A stretch of 64,000 nt of DNA from Thermoanaerobaculia bacterium (GTDB lineage Bacteria; Acidobacteriota; Thermoanaerobaculia; Multivoradales; Multivoraceae): the NCBI GenBank assembly GCA_963666565.1, contig OY762911.1:448001-512000 (forward strand). The letters are read 5' to 3'. Under the pieces are notes generated by a model that was not told where the DNA came from, did not search any database, and saw only the letters and a list, made by a program, of their open reading frames with translations. Position 1 is the first letter of the stretch. Every line of letters starts with the position of its first letter. The position numbers were made by a program, and so were the translations under genes. Shown piece after piece: positions 10,553 to 16,658 of the stretch.

Positions 10553-12457
10553 GTGGACGACCCCCGCGCGATCTGCGAGCGCCGCGCCGGGCAGCGCGAC
10601 GCGGAATTGCGGCGGGCGCGGCGAATCGAGAAGGCGATCTCCTGGTCGCGGCTGGCCGCCGTGCTGCTGGCGGCGGTCCTGGCCTGGCTCTCGATCCAGG
10701 AGAGGCTGCTCCCCCTGCCGGTGGCCGGTGCACCGGCGCTGGTGTTCGTGGCGCTGGTCGTCCTCCACGAGCGGGTCGTTCGCCGGGTGGCGCTCCTCAA
10801 GCGGCGCCGGACCTTCTACCGGCAGTCGCTCGCCCGGCTGGACGGCGACTGGCGGCGGGGCGGGCACGAGGGTTCGCGCATCGCCGCCGAACACGCCGAG
10901 CACCTCTACGCCGGGGACCTCGACCTGTTCGGCCCCGATTCCCTGTTCCAGATGCTGAGCCGCTCGCGCACCCGCGGCGGCGACGAGCTCCTGTCTGCCT
11001 GGCTGCTCGAGCCGGCGCCGCCCGACGTGGTGCGGAGACGGCAGGACGCCGTGAAGGAGTTGGCGCCGGGGGTCGACTTCCGCGAGCGTCTCGCCGTTCG
11101 GGGAGTTGCCGCGCGCAGCGAACTCGATCCGGCCGCGCTGGCCGGCTGGGCGGAGCGCGACGCCTCCGGCGCCCTGCCCGGCGGCGACCGGGGCAGGGCG
11201 CTGGCGAGGACCCTGCTGGCGCTGGCCGCCGCCGTCAACGTGATCACGCTGGCCGGCTGGCTGTCCTGGGGCTGGGGACCGTCGCCCTTCCTGGGCGCGG
11301 CGGTGCTGGAGATCCTCTGGAGTCTCTCTGTCCGCCGGCGACTGGCGGCCGCCGTCGCCGGCGTGACCCGCGCGAGCAGGGACCTGAACCTCGTCGCCGT
11401 CCTGCTGGACATCGTCGAGCGGGAGCGCTTCGAGAGCCCTCTTCTGGCCGAACTGTCGGCGGAACTGAGGAACGGGGACGGAACCACGGCCTCCGCCAGT
11501 GCCAGGCGGCTGCGCCGGCTCGTCGACCTGCTCGACTCGATGCGCAACGCCTTCTTCGTCCCGTTCGGACTGCTGCTGCTCTGGACGCCGCAGGTCGCCT
11601 GGGCGATCGACTCCTGGCGGCGGCGCCACGGCGACCGGATCGGGTCGTGGCTGCGCGTCGTCGCCGAGGTCGAAGCCCTGGCCAGCCTCGCGTCCTACGC
11701 CTTCGAACACCCGAAGCACGTCTTCCCGGCGGTCGTGGCGCCGGAGGACGAGCGGCCTTCGCTGCTCGTCGGGCGAGGTCTCGGACATCCCCTGCTGCCG
11801 GAAGCCGAATGCGTAGCGAACGACGTCGTCCTCTCGGCCCGTCCGGCGAACGCGGAACGAGGCGGCACGGCGCCCGGCGCCGAGCCGCTCGACGGCGGCG
11901 GCGCCCCGGGAACGCCGCCCCAGGCGCTCATCGTCAGCGGCTCGAACATGTCCGGCAAGAGCACCCTGCTGAGAACCGTCGGCGCGAACGTCGTCCTGGC
12001 CCTCGCCGGCGCCCCGGTGCGCGCGCAGTCGCTGCGGCTCGTGCCGCTCGCCATCGGTTCCTCGATCCAGCTTCGCGACTCTCTCGCCGCGGGCCAGTCC
12101 CGCTTCTACGCCGAGATCGTGAAGCTCAAGTCCGTACTCGATCTGACCGGCCGCGGGACGTCCGTGCTGTTCCTCCTCGACGAGATCCTTCACGGCACGA
12201 ACTCCCACGACCGGAGAGTCGGCGCCGAGGCCCTGATCCGCGGCCTGCTGGATCGCGGCGCGATCGGCCTCGTGACCACCCACGACCTGGCCCTGGCGAA
12301 GATCGCCGGCGCCTCTACACCGTCCCGGCTCCGCAACGTCCACTTCCAGGACCGGCTGGAGGACGGCCGGATCCGCTTCGACTACCGGCTGCGCGACGGC
12401 ACCGTCACCCGCAGCAACGCCCTCGACCTGATGCGCCAAGTCGGCCTGGACGTGTAG
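10553..12457 (+). CDS. membrane-anchored MutS domain V ATPase (short MutS-related protein)
   Basis: SGSNMSGKST, DSLAAGQSRFYAE, FLLDEILHGTNS, TTHDL; hydrophobic N-terminal segments. Confidence 0.88.
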   Translation: MDDPRAICERRAGQRDAELRRARRIEKAISWSRLAAVLLAAVLAWLSIQERLLPLPVAGAPALVFVALVVLHERVVRRVALLKRRRTFYRQSLARLDGDWRRGGHEGSRIAAEHAEHLYAGDLDLFGPDSLFQMLSRSRTRGGDELLSAWLLEPAPPDVVRRRQDAVKELAPGVDFRERLAVRGVAARSELDPAALAGWAERDASGALPGGDRGRALARTLLALAAAVNVITLAGWLSWGWGPSPFLGAAVLEILWSLSVRRRLAAAVAGVTRASRDLNLVAVLLDIVERERFESPLLAELSAELRNGDGTTASASARRLRRLVDLLDSMRNAFFVPFGLLLLWTPQVAWAIDSWRRRHGDRIGSWLRVVAEVEALASLASYAFEHPKHVFPAVVAPEDERPSLLVGRGLGHPLLPEAECVANDVVLSARPANAERGGTAPGAEPLDGGGAPGTPPQALIVSGSNMSGKSTLLRTVGANVVLALAGAPVRAQSLRLVPLAIGSSIQLRDSLAAGQSRFYAEIVKLKSVLDLTGRGTSVLFLLDEILHGTNSHDRRVGAEALIRGLLDRGAIGLVTTHDLALAKIAGASTPSRLRNVHFQDRLEDGRIRFDYRLRDGTVTRSNALDLMRQVGLDV

Positions 12458-12597
12458 GATCGGGGCCGGCGCGGGCTTTGTCCCGCTGGTCCCGGCGTCA
12501 GTACCGCACTGCAGTGCAGGGCGGAAGGCCGGAGGATGGCAGTCTTGAGTCCACGGAATCCTCAACTCCTCGGTCTTCGTGTAGAATCGACGGTCCA

Positions 12598-13608
12598 ATG
12601 ACCGCGACGGTTCTTCCCTTCCACTCGTCGCCCAAGCCGGCGTTCATCCCGGAGAGCGTTCCCGCTCCCGAGCCGGAGACGTACGTGGTGGATTCCGCCG
12701 AGGACTTCGAGACGCTGAGGGATCGCGCTCGGGAGTTCGTCGCCAGAGGTTCATACCGGGAAGCGGCCACGGTCTACCAGCGAGCCGTCGAGGTAGCGAC
12801 CGCGGCCGGAGAGACCGACCTCGCCGACGAAGCCCTCTGCGGTTGGGGCGCGGCGGAAACGGAACTCGGCAACGGCGCCGAGGTGATGCCGGAGCTCCGG
12901 CGGATCCTGCTTGGCAGTCCGGTCGACCACAACTGCTGCCTGGCCGCTTACACGCTGGCACGCGCCCACGAGCTGGAAGGTCAGGTCAAGAAGGCGCTGT
13001 TCTATGCCCGGCTGTTCCGCGACCGCGCGGAGTACGTCGAGCGTGGAGGGCTCCCCGGTTTGGCGCAGAACCTCCTGGGCAACCTCCTGGTGGCCGAGGG
13101 CAGGGAAGACGAGGCTGCGGTTTGCTATCGAGCGGCGCTTCGCCGCGCTGAGGACGCACCTTCCACGTGGAGGGCCGGCGCCGAGACGAATCTGGGCTAC
13201 TGCCTGCTCGTCAGCGCAACAACGAGCCGAGGACTTCGCCGCGCCAGAATGCGAGAAGGGCTGCGATTGATCTACCGGAGCATTCGGACGTTCCGGCGCG
13301 AAGGTGCGCTCCAGTACAGCATGCTTCCGCACCTCGACCTGTGCTTCGCCCATCTGGAGTTGAAACGTCCCACCTCCGCACGGCGGCACGGACGACGCGC
13401 ACTCGCACTCGCAAAGCGCTACGAGGATCTCGCGACACTCAAGAACGCGCTCTACCTGCTCGGCCATGCGGCACTGCTGGAAGGAGATACGGAAGCAGCG
13501 CGTCAGTGCTTCGACGAACTCGGAGAGCGTTTCTACCCCCATCAAGCCGGTTTGGCCGACCTGCTGATGTCGGTCGACTTCCGTCAAGTGGTGAACCTGA
13601 GAGCATGA
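12598..13608 (+). CDS. tetratricopeptide-repeat protein, no evident catalytic or HTH domain
   Basis: Tail of ORF 8335..13608; repeated TPR-like helices (AYTLARAHELEGQVKKALFY, NLLGNLLVAEGREDEAAVCY, NLGYCLL, NALYLLG); TAGAAT 10 nt upstream of ATG. Confidence 0.8.
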   Translation: MTATVLPFHSSPKPAFIPESVPAPEPETYVVDSAEDFETLRDRAREFVARGSYREAATVYQRAVEVATAAGETDLADEALCGWGAAETELGNGAEVMPELRRILLGSPVDHNCCLAAYTLARAHELEGQVKKALFYARLFRDRAEYVERGGLPGLAQNLLGNLLVAEGREDEAAVCYRAALRRAEDAPSTWRAGAETNLGYCLLVSATTSRGLRRARMREGLRLIYRSIRTFRREGALQYSMLPHLDLCFAHLELKRPTSARRHGRRALALAKRYEDLATLKNALYLLGHAALLEGDTEAARQCFDELGERFYPHQAGLADLLMSVDFRQVVNLRA

Positions 13609-15059
13609 TGAACGGTACGCTCACCAAGTTCCTGAATGGCGTGAAGCCGGCGGGCATCTTCGTCTGGACGACGCTGGCCCTGATGCTCAGCGGCGGTGCA
13701 GTGCACGCCACGGGCAGTGCGCCCGTACTGGGCAAGAGCGGCGACGTCTACCAGATCGCCGTGGGAATCTACAGCGACCTCTTCCCGGGCGGCAGTGAGG
13801 CTTCTGGCGACGCAGAGGTCCTGCGATTGGAGGCTCGGCGCGGTGCCGGCAGGGTCGAGCATTACCTGGTTCCCGGCAGTGAATCGAACGACAGCGACCG
13901 GACGCCGTCCCTCTTCTTCGACGCTTCCACCGGGAAGCTGTACGTGGTGTGGTCGAGCAGCAACACCTCGACTCTGACCCGGATCAACCTCGCCTCCTTC
14001 GACGGTAGCGAGTGGTCCGCGACGATCGAGGTTTCCGGGAACATCTACAGCGAGAAGTCGGCGCCGCGCCTCGCCGTCACCCACGATCGCTTTGAACTGG
14101 CCGGAGAGACTACCGGCGAGTCGAGTACCCGGACAGTCCTCCATGTGGTCTGGTCGGAAGGCACAGGCGGCGAGAAGGTCATGTACGCACCAGTCGTGTT
14201 GATCGACGGCGAGCTCGCCTCCACCTGGCGCCGCGTTCACACGCTGAACCACTACGTATCGCAGCAACTGGTCGACGATCCGCACCACGGCCAGGTAGCG
14301 ACGAAGTTGCTCTCCGCTCCCACAGTTGACGCGGGCAGTGAACCGAACGCCGTGGTCATCGGTTTCGCAGACGGCGACACCGGAGCCCTCGTCCAACTGG
14401 AGCTTTCGACGCCGGCCACCGAGCTTTCCGAACTCGCTGACAGCGTGGCAGACCATCTCGAATCGTCCGATCTCTGTAAACGGATCGCGGACGACGAGTC
14501 GGCTGCGCTGACGAGCGTTGCCGAAGCCGCACGAGTTCACATCGTGCTCGTGGGGCGTCGAATCCGCAGTCGGGTGCTCAGCCCGCTTGCCGAAGACGTC
14601 AAGAACGTACTAGTCCGCCGAGGCGCTGCTCTCTGCGCTGACGGCGGACTGATGAGCGTTTCGAGTGCCGCCAGAGTCCACATCGTGCTCGTAGGCGCCC
14701 GAGCCCAGGAGGGCGAGCTCCTTGAAGGCGCCGCGAACAACGATGCCCACGTCCTCCTCGCCGCCGCCCAGGAAGTCGGAGACGACGTCTACGTCCAGCA
14801 CCTCGCCCGGCTGCAGGTGAAGTCGGAGCGGGTCGCGCCCACTATCGGCCAAGGCGAACCGACGATCTTCGTCTCGCCCAAGGGCGCCGGCGCGGTCGTC
14901 GTCTGGGAGAACGGCAACATCCTGCGCTACGTCGAGACGCTGCCCGGCGACTTCGCCAGCGACGCCTGGAGCAACTCCTACACACTCCAGATCGGCAGCA
15001 CGCTCTCGCGCTCCGAGGCCTATTCGATGCTTCGGGATCGCGCCCGCTCCCTCGAGTAG
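13605..15059 (+). CDS. secreted hypothetical protein with repeated AARVHIVLVG motif
   Basis: ATGA overlap with TPR gene; signal-peptide-like N-terminus ending AVHA; beta-rich N-half; decapeptide repeated twice. Confidence 0.75.
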   Translation: MMNGTLTKFLNGVKPAGIFVWTTLALMLSGGAVHATGSAPVLGKSGDVYQIAVGIYSDLFPGGSEASGDAEVLRLEARRGAGRVEHYLVPGSESNDSDRTPSLFFDASTGKLYVVWSSSNTSTLTRINLASFDGSEWSATIEVSGNIYSEKSAPRLAVTHDRFELAGETTGESSTRTVLHVVWSEGTGGEKVMYAPVVLIDGELASTWRRVHTLNHYVSQQLVDDPHHGQVATKLLSAPTVDAGSEPNAVVIGFADGDTGALVQLELSTPATELSELADSVADHLESSDLCKRIADDESAALTSVAEAARVHIVLVGRRIRSRVLSPLAEDVKNVLVRRGAALCADGGLMSVSSAARVHIVLVGARAQEGELLEGAANNDAHVLLAAAQEVGDDVYVQHLARLQVKSERVAPTIGQGEPTIFVSPKGAGAVVVWENGNILRYVETLPGDFASDAWSNSYTLQIGSTLSRSEAYSMLRDRARSLE

Positions 15060-15149
15060 GGTCGAGCACGTCACGTACTCTCCGTCGAATCGGTGCCGGC
15101 CTGGCGGCCGGCGCGTTTCCCGGCAGCAACTGGCCGATGACGACGTCCA

Positions 15150-15321
15150 GCCTGCCGGGGCCAGCGAAGGGGCGCCCGGCGGGCTGGAGGCAAGCGCCGC
15201 CTGACGCCGCCACGCCAACCGACGCCGACGTGGAGCGCAGCCGACCGAAGCGAGCGCGGCTTACCCTTCACCAAGAGAGCGCGAGCGGCCGCTGGGCGCC
15301 CCTTCCCTGGCCCCGGCAGGC
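15150..15321. repeat. ~33-bp inverted repeat pair between convergent genes
   Basis: gcctgccggggccagcgaaggggcgcccggcgg (15150-15182) vs ccgctgggcgccccttccctggccccggcaggc (15289-15321), 2 mismatches. Confidence 0.8.
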
Positions 15322-15362
15322 GGGTGAGTCCGGGATGCCGCCGAAGACGGACGCGGCTCGGG

Positions 15363-16658
15363 CTACGGACCCAGCCGGACGGCGCGGTCCGATCCGCCGA
15401 GGAGTTCGTGCCGCAAGGCGTCCCGGCGTTCGAAGAACGCCGGCAGCAAGTCCTCCGCCAGCGGCGGCACGGGCTCGCTCACCAGGGCCGCCGGGTTGAT
15501 CCAGCGGCCGTTCCGCTGTACCCGATAGTCGAGGTGAGGTCCCGTCGAAAGACCGCTGGAGCCCACGTAACCGACGACCTGCCCCTGAGCGACCCGCGCT
15601 CCCGCGTGGATGCCCTGCGCGTAGCCTGAGAGGTGCAGGTACGCCGTCAGATAGCCGTTGGCGTGGCGCAACCGGACCGTCCGTCCGCCGCCGCCTCGCA
15701 CGCCCGCCGAAACGACCGTGCCGTCCGCGGTCGCCCGCACCGGGGTTCCGACCGGCGCGCCGTAGTCGACGCCGTAGTGCGGCATCCGCCGCTTCAGGAT
15801 CGGGTGGAAGCGACTCAGCGAGAAGCGGGACGTGACTCTCGAGTACGGCAGCGGCGAACGCAGGAACTGCCGCTGCAGAGGTTGACCGTCGCCGTCGTAG
15901 TACCGGTTCGAGCCCGTCTGGCCGCCGTCCTCGCCCTGGAATCCGTAGGCCTCGAGCCAGCGCTCCCGGTTCCGGTAGCGGAGCGCGTGGACCCGAGCCG
16001 CGCCCTGCGTCCGGCCGTCCAGCAGGAGTTCGTCGAACAGGATCTCGAAGCGGTCGCCGACCCGCAGGTCCCGATTGAAGTCGAGGTCCCACTGCAGCAC
16101 CCTCGCCATGCTGCCGGCCAGGTTCGCAGGCCCGCCGGCTCGGCGAAGCGAGGTCTCCAGGGCGCCCCGCAGCTCGCCGCGGACGAGGCGGCGAACGTGA
16201 GTGCGCCGGTAGGGACGGTAGCGGCTCGTCCAGACCCCGCGATTCCGGTCCGCCAGGACGACGCCCTGGCCGCGGCGCGGCAGCACGATGCCGACGAGTC
16301 CCTCGTCCCGGCGAACCATCGAGTAGACGAACTCCCGAGCGCGCAGCTTCCGGGGGTCCAGGACCTCGCTGACCGCCGTGCTGGCCCGGTGGAGTTCGGC
16401 CGCCGGAACGCCGGCCCGGAGCAGGACCTCGTCGAGGGTGTCGCCCCTCCGAATCTCGCGCTCCAGCGGGAACGGCGCGCGGTCCAACGCCGCCGGGTCC
16501 AACGCCGAGGCCGAATCGTCCTCGACCGCGCCGCCCGGGGCCGCGGCGTCCAACCTGATGGGGGACGGCGCGGGACGCACCGCGAGCCAGCCCAGGACGA
16601 GCGCCAGAGCGACGCTCGAGAGAACCGCGGCCCAGCGCCCACGTTGTTCAGTACGCAC
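15363..16658 (-). CDS. M23 family peptidoglycan DD-metalloendopeptidase (MepM-like)
   Basis: HYGVDYGAPVGTPV, YLHLS, TGPHLDY; N-terminal TM anchor. Confidence 0.92.
   Translation of the reverse strand: MRTEQRGRWAAVLSSVALALVLGWLAVRPAPSPIRLDAAAPGGAVEDDSASALDPAALDRAPFPLEREIRRGDTLDEVLLRAGVPAAELHRASTAVSEVLDPRKLRAREFVYSMVRRDEGLVGIVLPRRGQGVVLADRNRGVWTSRYRPYRRTHVRRLVRGELRGALETSLRRAGGPANLAGSMARVLQWDLDFNRDLRVGDRFEILFDELLLDGRTQGAARVHALRYRNRERWLEAYGFQGEDGGQTGSNRYYDGDGQPLQRQFLRSPLPYSRVTSRFSLSRFHPILKRRMPHYGVDYGAPVGTPVRATADGTVVSAGVRGGGGRTVRLRHANGYLTAYLHLSGYAQGIHAGARVAQGQVVGYVGSSGLSTGPHLDYRVQRNGRWINPAALVSEPVPPLAEDLLPAFFERRDALRHELLGGSDRAVRLGP

Follow-up and report, generated by a model that had tools for sequence, protein, structure and literature searches.

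A selectively maintained repeat peptide that co-varies with a tetratricopeptide repeat protein: a candidate RRNPP-like module in Acidobacteriota

In the 64,000-nt stretch of Thermoanaerobaculia bacterium DNA analysed here (positions 448,001 to 512,000 of contig OY762911.1, assembly GCA_963666565.1; hereafter the window), two genes of the forward strand form a tight pair (Table 1). The first encodes a 336-aa protein for which Pfam returns tetratricopeptide repeat (TPR) families alone (TPR_12, 1.3e-11; TPR_2, 2e-11; TPR_14; TPR_8), in agreement with an earlier reading of the same DNA made without database searches (the sequence-only reading), which had described a TPR-only protein lacking a helix-turn-helix (HTH) domain. 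The second encodes a 484-aa protein, predicted to be exported, in which the peptide AARVHIVLVG occurs twice (aa 308-317 and 355-364). The two genes do overlap by ATGA, at 13605-13608, as had been claimed; position 12582, given previously as the start of the TPR gene, belongs to a TAGAAT hexamer, and the open reading frame (ORF) begins downstream of it. The source genome is a single contig of 4.79 Mb with a GC content of ~70%.

The peptide copies, whose exact identity had been recognised from the window itself, differ at 5 nt, all of them synonymous. Their DNA is 79% identical over 47 nt, and TRF detects no tandem repeat at the DNA level. An alignment of the family places both copies in a cassette of up to four tandem units of ~23 aa, of which units 2 and 4 are active in the window protein and units 1 and 3 retain only an L-x-x-L-A-D/E frame. 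By the same alignment, the sequence NNDAHVLLAA (14736-14765), which the sequence-only reading took for a degenerate third copy, is no repeat unit at all, the real degenerate units being those listed in Table 1.

In order to follow the repeat among close relatives, we used a set of 45 gene copies (the close set), comprising the window's own gene, 40 loci (L002-L041) from species-representative genomes (Candidatus Multivorans, Thermoanaerobaculia and similar) and four tandem paralogues. The 9-aa cores (A-R-x-H-x-V-x-x-G) are identical within the protein in 44 of the 45 copies, with 19 different cores overall. Compared copy against copy, the 405 core codons show 214 synonymous differences and 1 non-synonymous difference. 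The differing fraction of codons (0.528) matches that expected for independent draws from the genes' own codon usage (0.505), and the copies are therefore at synonymous saturation. Saturation at the DNA level combined with identity at the protein level means that selection keeps the peptide identical, as had been proposed from the window's two copies, and excludes gene conversion. Internal repeats often evolve in concert, and homogenisation of the DNA, by gene conversion or recent duplication, would be an obvious way of keeping copies alike; it is, however, refuted by the saturation, by the single codon difference at the protein level and by the lack of a DNA repeat, and we give it practically no credence.

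The same pattern extends well beyond the close set. Among 147 listed representatives of the family (the window's own protein and two fragments being set aside), 128 carry an exact, protein-specific internal repeat, 8-18 residues in length and conforming in every case to L-A-D-x-x-R-x-H-I-I-x-x-G; 9 have none. An order-level set of 102 full-length genes outside the Multivorans-type set contains an exact repeat of at least 8 aa in 94 cases; two copies of the 8-mer core are present in 50 of the genes, three copies in 35 and four in 3. The 93 resolved genes together have 71 distinct 8-mers, and identical copies differ in 377 of 1384 codon comparisons. The behaviour anticipated by the sequence-only reading, namely a repeat that is constant within a protein and variable between genomes, is thus what all three sets display.

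The constrained segment is short and sharply bounded. Between active units of the same protein, identity drops from 1.00 at the glycine to 0.27 at position +1 (0.31 between proteins); on the other side, the values within and between proteins are 0.90 and 0.32 at -8, and 0.39 and 0.14 at -9. Because identity collapses at +1 and at -9, we place the segment at ~9-10 residues with a sharp end at Gly. It contains an invariant Arg and extends to about -8/-9, which fits poorly with the earlier suggestion of a cut after Arg that would release VHIVLVG.

Within these limits the core changes rapidly. All 17 within-genome paralogue pairs examined have different cores, and at least 25 core changes are counted on a tree of the exported protein built without the repeat columns. 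Core positions x1, x3 and x4 change 13, 15 and 11 times on this tree, both copies in step, which places them in the 80th-93rd percentile of 441 columns. A regular array of 23-aa units with beta-branched, hydrophobic cores might be a purely structural repeat, in which identical segments pack together by in-register beta stacking or in a symmetric bundle, any covariation with the TPR protein being due to shared ancestry. The arrangement of the units argues against this: active units 2 and 4 are not adjacent in this clade, units 1 and 3 having decayed, and among the representatives the number and place of the active units vary, with spacings of 20-27, 43-49 and 63-73 aa. The covariation described below also bears on this point.

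Of the 251 genomes sampled from the window's order, 186 encode a member of the exported-protein family, which is absent from all 45 sampled in one taxonomic family of that order; in the phylum as a whole it was detected in 22 of 301 sampled genomes, every one of them within the window's class. Many genomes possess two or three copies. A profile search of 1.84 billion representatives retrieved 723 clusters at E<=1e-3 and 349 at <=1e-30; the ten cluster representatives looked up are all annotated 'hypothetical protein', as are the 121 homologues from a word-indexed search, nearly all 60-80% identical and originating from Holophagales or from metagenome-assembled genomes of Acidobacteriota. No Pfam family exceeds the cut-off for the 484-aa protein and none is found in more than 2 of 36 diverse members; NCBIfam matches 0 of the 36, and PHROGs and PADLOC likewise gave 0 matches for the family. 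By our own crude hydropathy rule (cut-off 2.0), 248 of 260 family members have a signal-like N-terminus. A signal peptide, as the sequence-only reading assigned to the window's protein, is thus predicted for most of the family, the window's own protein being borderline by this rule (1.99). None of 118 TPR homologues carries a signal-like N-terminus, and in distant families the TPR protein begins at its first helix, without a signal peptide.

The linkage of the two genes, which the sequence-only reading had expected to be retained across homologues, is without exception in our samples. Each of the 102 order-level genes has, on its own strand, a TPR ORF whose end lies no more than 250 nt upstream of it. 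With tblastn the TPR gene was found upstream at 71/71 loci (Multivorans-type loci included, and repeats of the same places among them) and at 46/46 distant loci; locus L064 (genome G029, flagged unpublished) enters both counts, which become 70/70 and 45/45 without it. The TPR partner is also kept at 12/12 class-level loci, and tandem duplications copy the whole pair. The class-level relatives at L062, L063, L065, L067 and L069 have mature proteins of ~330-350 aa, a TPR partner and a single R-x-R-h-P-h-G-like unit, which separates their N-terminal from their C-terminal part. The protein at L068 has a second copy of its unit at the C-terminal end, directly before the stop codon.

Residues of the TPR protein co-vary with those of the peptide, as the sequence-only reading had anticipated, in two independent sets of pairs. 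After exclusion of copies truncated at a locus edge, the close set provides 44 unique pairs. In all 44, core position x1 maps one-to-one on TPR position 197 (V with T, I or H with G, A with V), and x4 maps on TPR48 (V with V or I, F with G, G with L); His at x1 is accompanied by D240 and Leu at x3 by C114, each again in 44/44 pairs. Covariation with the peptide was also seen for TPR residues 143 and 157. The covariation is one of size and charge, large residues being paired with small ones and His with Asp. The ten columns most strongly coupled to x1, x3 and x4 are TPR columns and the core's own two, one other column of the exported protein appearing in the x4 list alone. The remainder of the exported protein, although encoded between the TPR gene and the cassette and of the same ancestry, couples less.

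The distant set consists of 88 pairs. Here D or E at core position -2 goes with R as against Q, F or W at TPR114 (z = 13.5), the same pair of positions as in the close set; H, Q or N at -5 goes with L, Q or R at TPR159 (z = 14.1) and is also coupled to TPR163. Position -1 is coupled to TPR60 (z = 14.6) and TPR48 (z = 8.0), position -6 to TPR243 and TPR191, and position -8 to TPR247. In a phylogeny-aware sign test, D with R114 agrees in 81/88 pairs (12 independent pairs, p 0.004); E with Q/F/W at TPR114 (p 0.004) and Q with Q159 (p 0.03) are likewise significant. In a control for ancestry, the top TPR column outscored every non-cassette column of the exported protein at 6/7 core positions (for example, z = 18.3 vs 9.0 at -5 and 13.4 vs 6.2 at -2). 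The resulting contact map is monotonic: the C-terminal end of the peptide corresponds to the first TPRs and its N-terminal part to later ones, which fits the expectation for an extended peptide in a TPR groove. Judging from the sequence register and from what is generally known of TPRs, the co-varying positions would lie on the concave face, in the groove. Three conserved asparagines of the TPR protein, N158 (97%), N162 (92%) and N198 (100%), are located between the specificity positions. OGT, like other repeat proteins, uses an asparagine ladder to grip the backbone of a peptide, and the three residues are reminiscent of such ladders; the TPRs of OGT and LGN are among the best PDB profile matches, over TPR residues 147-191.

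Peptide recognition by the TPRs is thus supported by covariation, and specific binding of the cassette unit by the TPR protein appears to us highly probable. Against the purely structural repeat, the coupling of TPR columns to the core is stronger than that of the exported protein's other columns, despite their shared ancestry; the motif, moreover, also occurs alone in tiny genes (see below), and this explanation is in our view very improbable. Equally improbable is a precursor of the type that yields ribosomally synthesised and post-translationally modified peptides (RiPPs), in which the units would be core peptides and the TPR protein a recognition or scaffold partner of modifying enzymes. 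Its appeal lies in the conserved flanks of the variable cores (L-A-D before, G-x-R/K after), an arrangement resembling that of multi-core RiPP precursors, such as the cyanobactin precursor PatE and the repeat precursors of fungi. No modifying enzyme, however, is conserved beside the pair, whose neighbours vary by family (a MutS-like gene and an M23 peptidase gene here, an ABC-2 permease and an FG-GAP protein elsewhere) and comprise none of the known RiPP enzymes. Furthermore, the Sec-type signal of the precursor would be unusual for RiPPs, and one-to-one residue covariation with the TPR protein is the behaviour of a receptor rather than of a leader-binding scaffold.

Among relatives, the motif is also encoded outside the large exported protein. 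Extra motif-bearing genes, of two kinds, precede the TPR gene in 18 of the 40 loci L002-L041 and in L048. The first kind comprises ORFs of 22-24 aa whose start codon follows, at a distance of 5-9 nt, a strong GGAAAGGAG-type ribosome-binding site, and in which the Gly of the motif is the very last residue. An example is L006:2817-2891 (+), with similar ORFs in L005, L007, L011, L020 (two), L028, L031 (two), L039, L040 and L048; they consist of a conserved hydrophobic leader followed by the 9-aa motif and share the strand of the TPR gene, which they precede by 100-1100 nt. The second kind comprises proteins of ~130 aa whose N-terminus looks signal-like and in which two different cores occur at a distance of 19 residues, exemplified by L024:2162-2566 (+), with similar ones in L010, L015, L017, L021, L023, L025, L030 and L038. 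In these proteins the second core is preceded by a conserved D-G-P-P-C-T-C, and they match no PADLOC family. Because both kinds of gene encode the motif on its own, the motif is likely to be a free-standing functional unit. By our count, 0 of 27 accessory cores equal the core of the adjacent exported protein and 16 of 27 equal the core of another genome, the lack of self-matches not being significant (chance estimate ~0.06-0.2). All 5 of 5 genomes with accessory genes have one TPR homologue each. Outside the Multivorans-type loci, where most of the flanks covered were short, small motif genes were seen in one case, L050/L120, which belongs to a distant family: a candidate 48-aa ORF (L120:540-686 (-), at the edge of L050) has two motif copies, the second ending at Gly-stop, and adjoins an XRE-type HTH gene (L120:18-389; Pfam HTH_3, 1.5e-11).

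The accessory cores recall the pheromone/receptor mating-type loci of basidiomycetes, which are polymorphic and in which the receptor is encoded alongside peptides that fit the receptors of other alleles but not that of their own locus. Unlike these loci, the acidobacterial module also encodes the self ligand, in several copies, and is bacterial, with no known link to mating.

Specific binding would also be expected if the TPR protein met its partner in cis before export, as a dedicated cytoplasmic chaperone, holdase or export regulator that grips 2-4 hydrophobic units of the unfolded precursor, with no diffusible signal involved. Much agrees with this: the TPR protein is devoid of a signal-like N-terminus that its partner regularly has, the ATGA overlap suggests coupled synthesis, several identical units suit avidity binding, and the carrier is conserved and probably folded and its TPR partner lacks an output domain. 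The accessory peptides can be accommodated as well, as mimics that could compete for the TPR proteins of other strains and thereby drive diversification. Such an arrangement brings to mind the class II chaperones of type III secretion, which are small, cytoplasmic, all-TPR proteins encoded beside their secreted partner and hold a short extended segment of it in their groove. Their clients, however, are not Sec substrates, and the segment recognised is conserved rather than hypervariable and does not occur as identical repeats. The sharp Gly end, and genes of 22-24 aa that end there, are easier to reconcile with a ligand whose C-terminus is free than with an internal segment; contact between chaperone and client gives no obvious cause of fast diversification unless the mimicry is invoked, and the missing self-matches on which the mimicry would draw are, as noted, within chance. 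On balance we consider binding in cis somewhat unlikely, albeit a serious alternative.

We favour a lock-and-key module made of a polymorphic peptide and a TPR receptor, working by the logic of RRNPP systems with no detectable RRNPP homology, and rate its chances of being right or wrong as about equal. In such a module, the TPR protein would grip, in the cytoplasm, a peptide of ~10 residues ending in Gly (here AARVHIVLVG), held extended in the TPR groove, its C-terminal end lying against residues 45-60 and 114 of the TPR protein and residues 191-247 facing its N-terminal part. Two identical copies of this putative ligand are present in the exported protein, as units 2 and 4 of the four-unit cassette. 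We infer that this protein serves as a precursor of several peptide copies, that a periplasmic cut immediately behind the Gly frees them, and that an oligopeptide permease would re-import them before they are sensed by the TPR protein. Specificity changes fast, peptide and TPR protein changing together, and the quorum-sensing logic of RRNPP systems would have arisen independently in a diderm, with 'private' specificities. RRNPP logic is preferred because the Gly end is sharp, free-standing genes end there, the carrier is exported, the receptor is cytoplasmic, and the specificities evolve quickly and are insulated from each other. The genome encodes 8 OppA/DppA-type binding proteins (SBP_bac_5), an observation that is permissive only, as the family is also present in 11/14 control genomes. 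We regard as doubtful the broader notion of a polymorphic self/non-self peptide code of Acidobacteriota, in which each strain would have a private TPR-peptide pair, the cognate peptide being contained several times over in an exported protein, and many strains would also export small peptides matching the receptors of others in order to signal, eavesdrop or jam.

The design of the putative precursor has a eukaryotic counterpart. The yeast alpha-factor gene MFalpha1 encodes a signal-bearing precursor with several identical peptide copies separated by spacers with basic residues, which is processed by Kex2 and whose product is read by a membrane receptor. The acidobacterial protein is likewise signal-bearing with multiple identical peptides, but its cassette is flanked by two large conserved domains and its candidate receptor is cytoplasmic.

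To our knowledge, signalling by genetically encoded peptides that cytoplasmic TPR receptors detect has been treated as a hallmark of Bacillota. A large survey of RRNPP systems covered Firmicutes genomes only and sets out a five-part signature: a receptor of 250-500 aa, TPRs that recognise the peptide, adjacency of the two genes, a propeptide of 10-100 aa, and export (by Sec or PptAB) with maturation to a short peptide (PMC10075063). The systems known from Bacillota and their phages (Rap-Phr, NprR-NprX, PlcR-PapR, PrgX, AimR-AimP and Rgg-SHP) share with the present module a cytoplasmic TPR protein of 250-500 aa encoded beside a gene for a genetically encoded peptide, exported there and predicted to be exported here, and intragenic duplication of the peptide is on record there for Phr (PMC10075063). 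In the module, receptor length, TPRs and adjacency (ATGA in the window, and throughout the order-level set) agree with the signature, and in both cases receptor and peptide co-vary and paralogues are mutually insulated. In SHP propeptides the C-terminal 8 residues form the active part (DILIIVGG for SHP2; PMC4436074). The tiny ORFs of the window's relatives resemble these propeptides.

The module departs from RRNPP systems in several respects. It occurs in a different phylum, within a diderm envelope, and in place of a propeptide of 10-100 aa its main carrier is a conserved protein of 484 aa in which the peptide recurs 2-4 times, motif ORFs of 22-24 aa being encoded in relatives only; the extra peptide genes of those relatives carry cores unmatched to the adjacent TPR protein. 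A specific sequence likeness is also lacking: phmmer matched no RRNPP receptor chain to the TPR protein, in the PDB profile comparison Rap3T (5.7e-5), RapI (4.5e-4) and RapF (2.4e-3) all rank below consensus TPR, OGT and LGN, and neither an HTH nor a three-helix N-terminal effector domain is present. For the candidate RRNPP-like system put forward by the sequence-only reading, the functional analogy is good and all the comparative tests suggested there have favourable outcomes. As far as sequence can tell, the module resembles an RRNPP system in its working but is not a member of that group.

A number of observations weigh against the signalling module we propose. The TPR protein has no DNA-binding or enzymatic domain by Pfam, and longer or fused forms were not found (weak evidence). 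The exported protein is large and conserved from end to end, and the window's own genome has none of the small peptide genes. A homologue gave an Atlas feature score of 0.87-0.89 to BNR_4/BNR_2 clusters, a weak lead below the method's own trust level; membership of the BNR/sialidase-like beta-propellers is not supported by family models, none of which matches above cut-off, or by repeated Asp-box motifs, of which there is a single S-x-D-G-x-x-W (aa 131-138). Residues C291 and C344, which flank cassette units 2 and 3, are invariant in the close alignment and not conserved in the wider family; they may form a periplasmic disulfide. The cassette may accordingly be a folded element and not a processing substrate, and the single unit of the class-level relatives, with their TPR partner, may be part of the fold. 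In the close set, supported branches provide only 4 independent pairs, all in the same direction (p 0.125; 9-10 pairs on all branches). In the distant set, the sign test was not significant for H at -5 with L at TPR159 (p 0.25), N at -5 with R (0.06), -1 with TPR60 (0.125-0.25) and -8 with TPR247 (0.5).

Whatever its function, the module is an unannotated one in 186 of the 251 genomes sampled from a single acidobacterial order, and combines what looks like receptor-ligand co-evolution with an unusual precursor design. It provides a clean natural example of repeats selected for identity at the protein level while their DNA copies drifted to saturation, and a readable specificity code that relates peptide positions -1, -2, -5 and -6 to TPR positions 48/60, 114, 159/163 and 197/240. 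Search listings, whose coverage did not extend to subscription journals, contained no description of such a module outside Bacillota, and no papers on 'Candidatus Multivorans' were found.

Table 1. Features of the gene pair and its immediate surroundings (positions within the window).
Feature	Position	Strand	Remarks
TAGAAT hexamer	12582-12587	+	Read in the sequence; called a -10 box by the sequence-only reading
TPR-only protein gene	12598-13608	+	336 aa, ORF translation; no signal-like N-terminus; putative peptide receptor
Predicted exported 484-aa protein gene	13605-15059	+	Translation; unannotated family; bears the peptide cassette
Predicted Sec-type signal peptide	13605-13709	+	aa 1-35; possible cleavage after V-H-A, read by eye
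Cassette unit 1, degenerate	14424-14471	+	Keeps L-x-x-L-A-D, lacks the Arg/His core; from alignment
Cassette unit 2, active	14508-14555	+	Core AARVHIVLVG at 14526-14555
Cassette unit 3, degenerate	14577-14624	+	From alignment
Cassette unit 4, active	14649-14696	+	Core AARVHIVLVG at 14667-14696
Long inverted repeat	arms 15147-15182 and 15289-15324	.	36 nt each, 92% complementary; between the convergent 484-aa protein and M23 peptidase genes

The TPR protein of the window starts with a proline-rich extension (aa 1-35; 12598-12700) that is kept in Multivorans-type TPR proteins and absent from distant families. Export of the TPR protein as a Tat 'hitch-hiker' was considered and dropped, since the twin arginines seen by eye in some N-termini of the diverse alignment are not a feature of this clade.

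As the sequence-only reading had remarked, the pair is less GC-biased at third codon positions than its surroundings (0.76 and 0.81 vs 0.88-0.93 in four adjacent genes). The promoter attributed to it fared less well: the TAGAAT hexamer exists, but a scan of 12300-15500 for sigma-70-like promoters returned 0 sites and gives the -10 assignment no support. The long inverted repeat noticed after the gene pair is likewise real and very stable (minimum free energy of -123.8 kcal/mol; fold z = -4.3); its arm has no other occurrence in the genome, and Rfam has 0 matches to it.

The pair is preceded by a MutS-like gene (10553-12457; MutS_V and a weak MutS_III match) and followed by an M23 peptidase gene (15363-16658, minus strand). 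In one family of the order, represented by L105, L106, L116, L119 and L120, the divergent neighbours of the TPR gene are conserved and encode an ABC-2 type permease and an FG-GAP repeat protein, a neighbourhood not present in the window. Within the 140-nt spacer that separates the MutS-like gene from the TPR gene, a perfect 12-nt palindrome, GCACTGCAGTGC, can be read by eye at 12500-12515.

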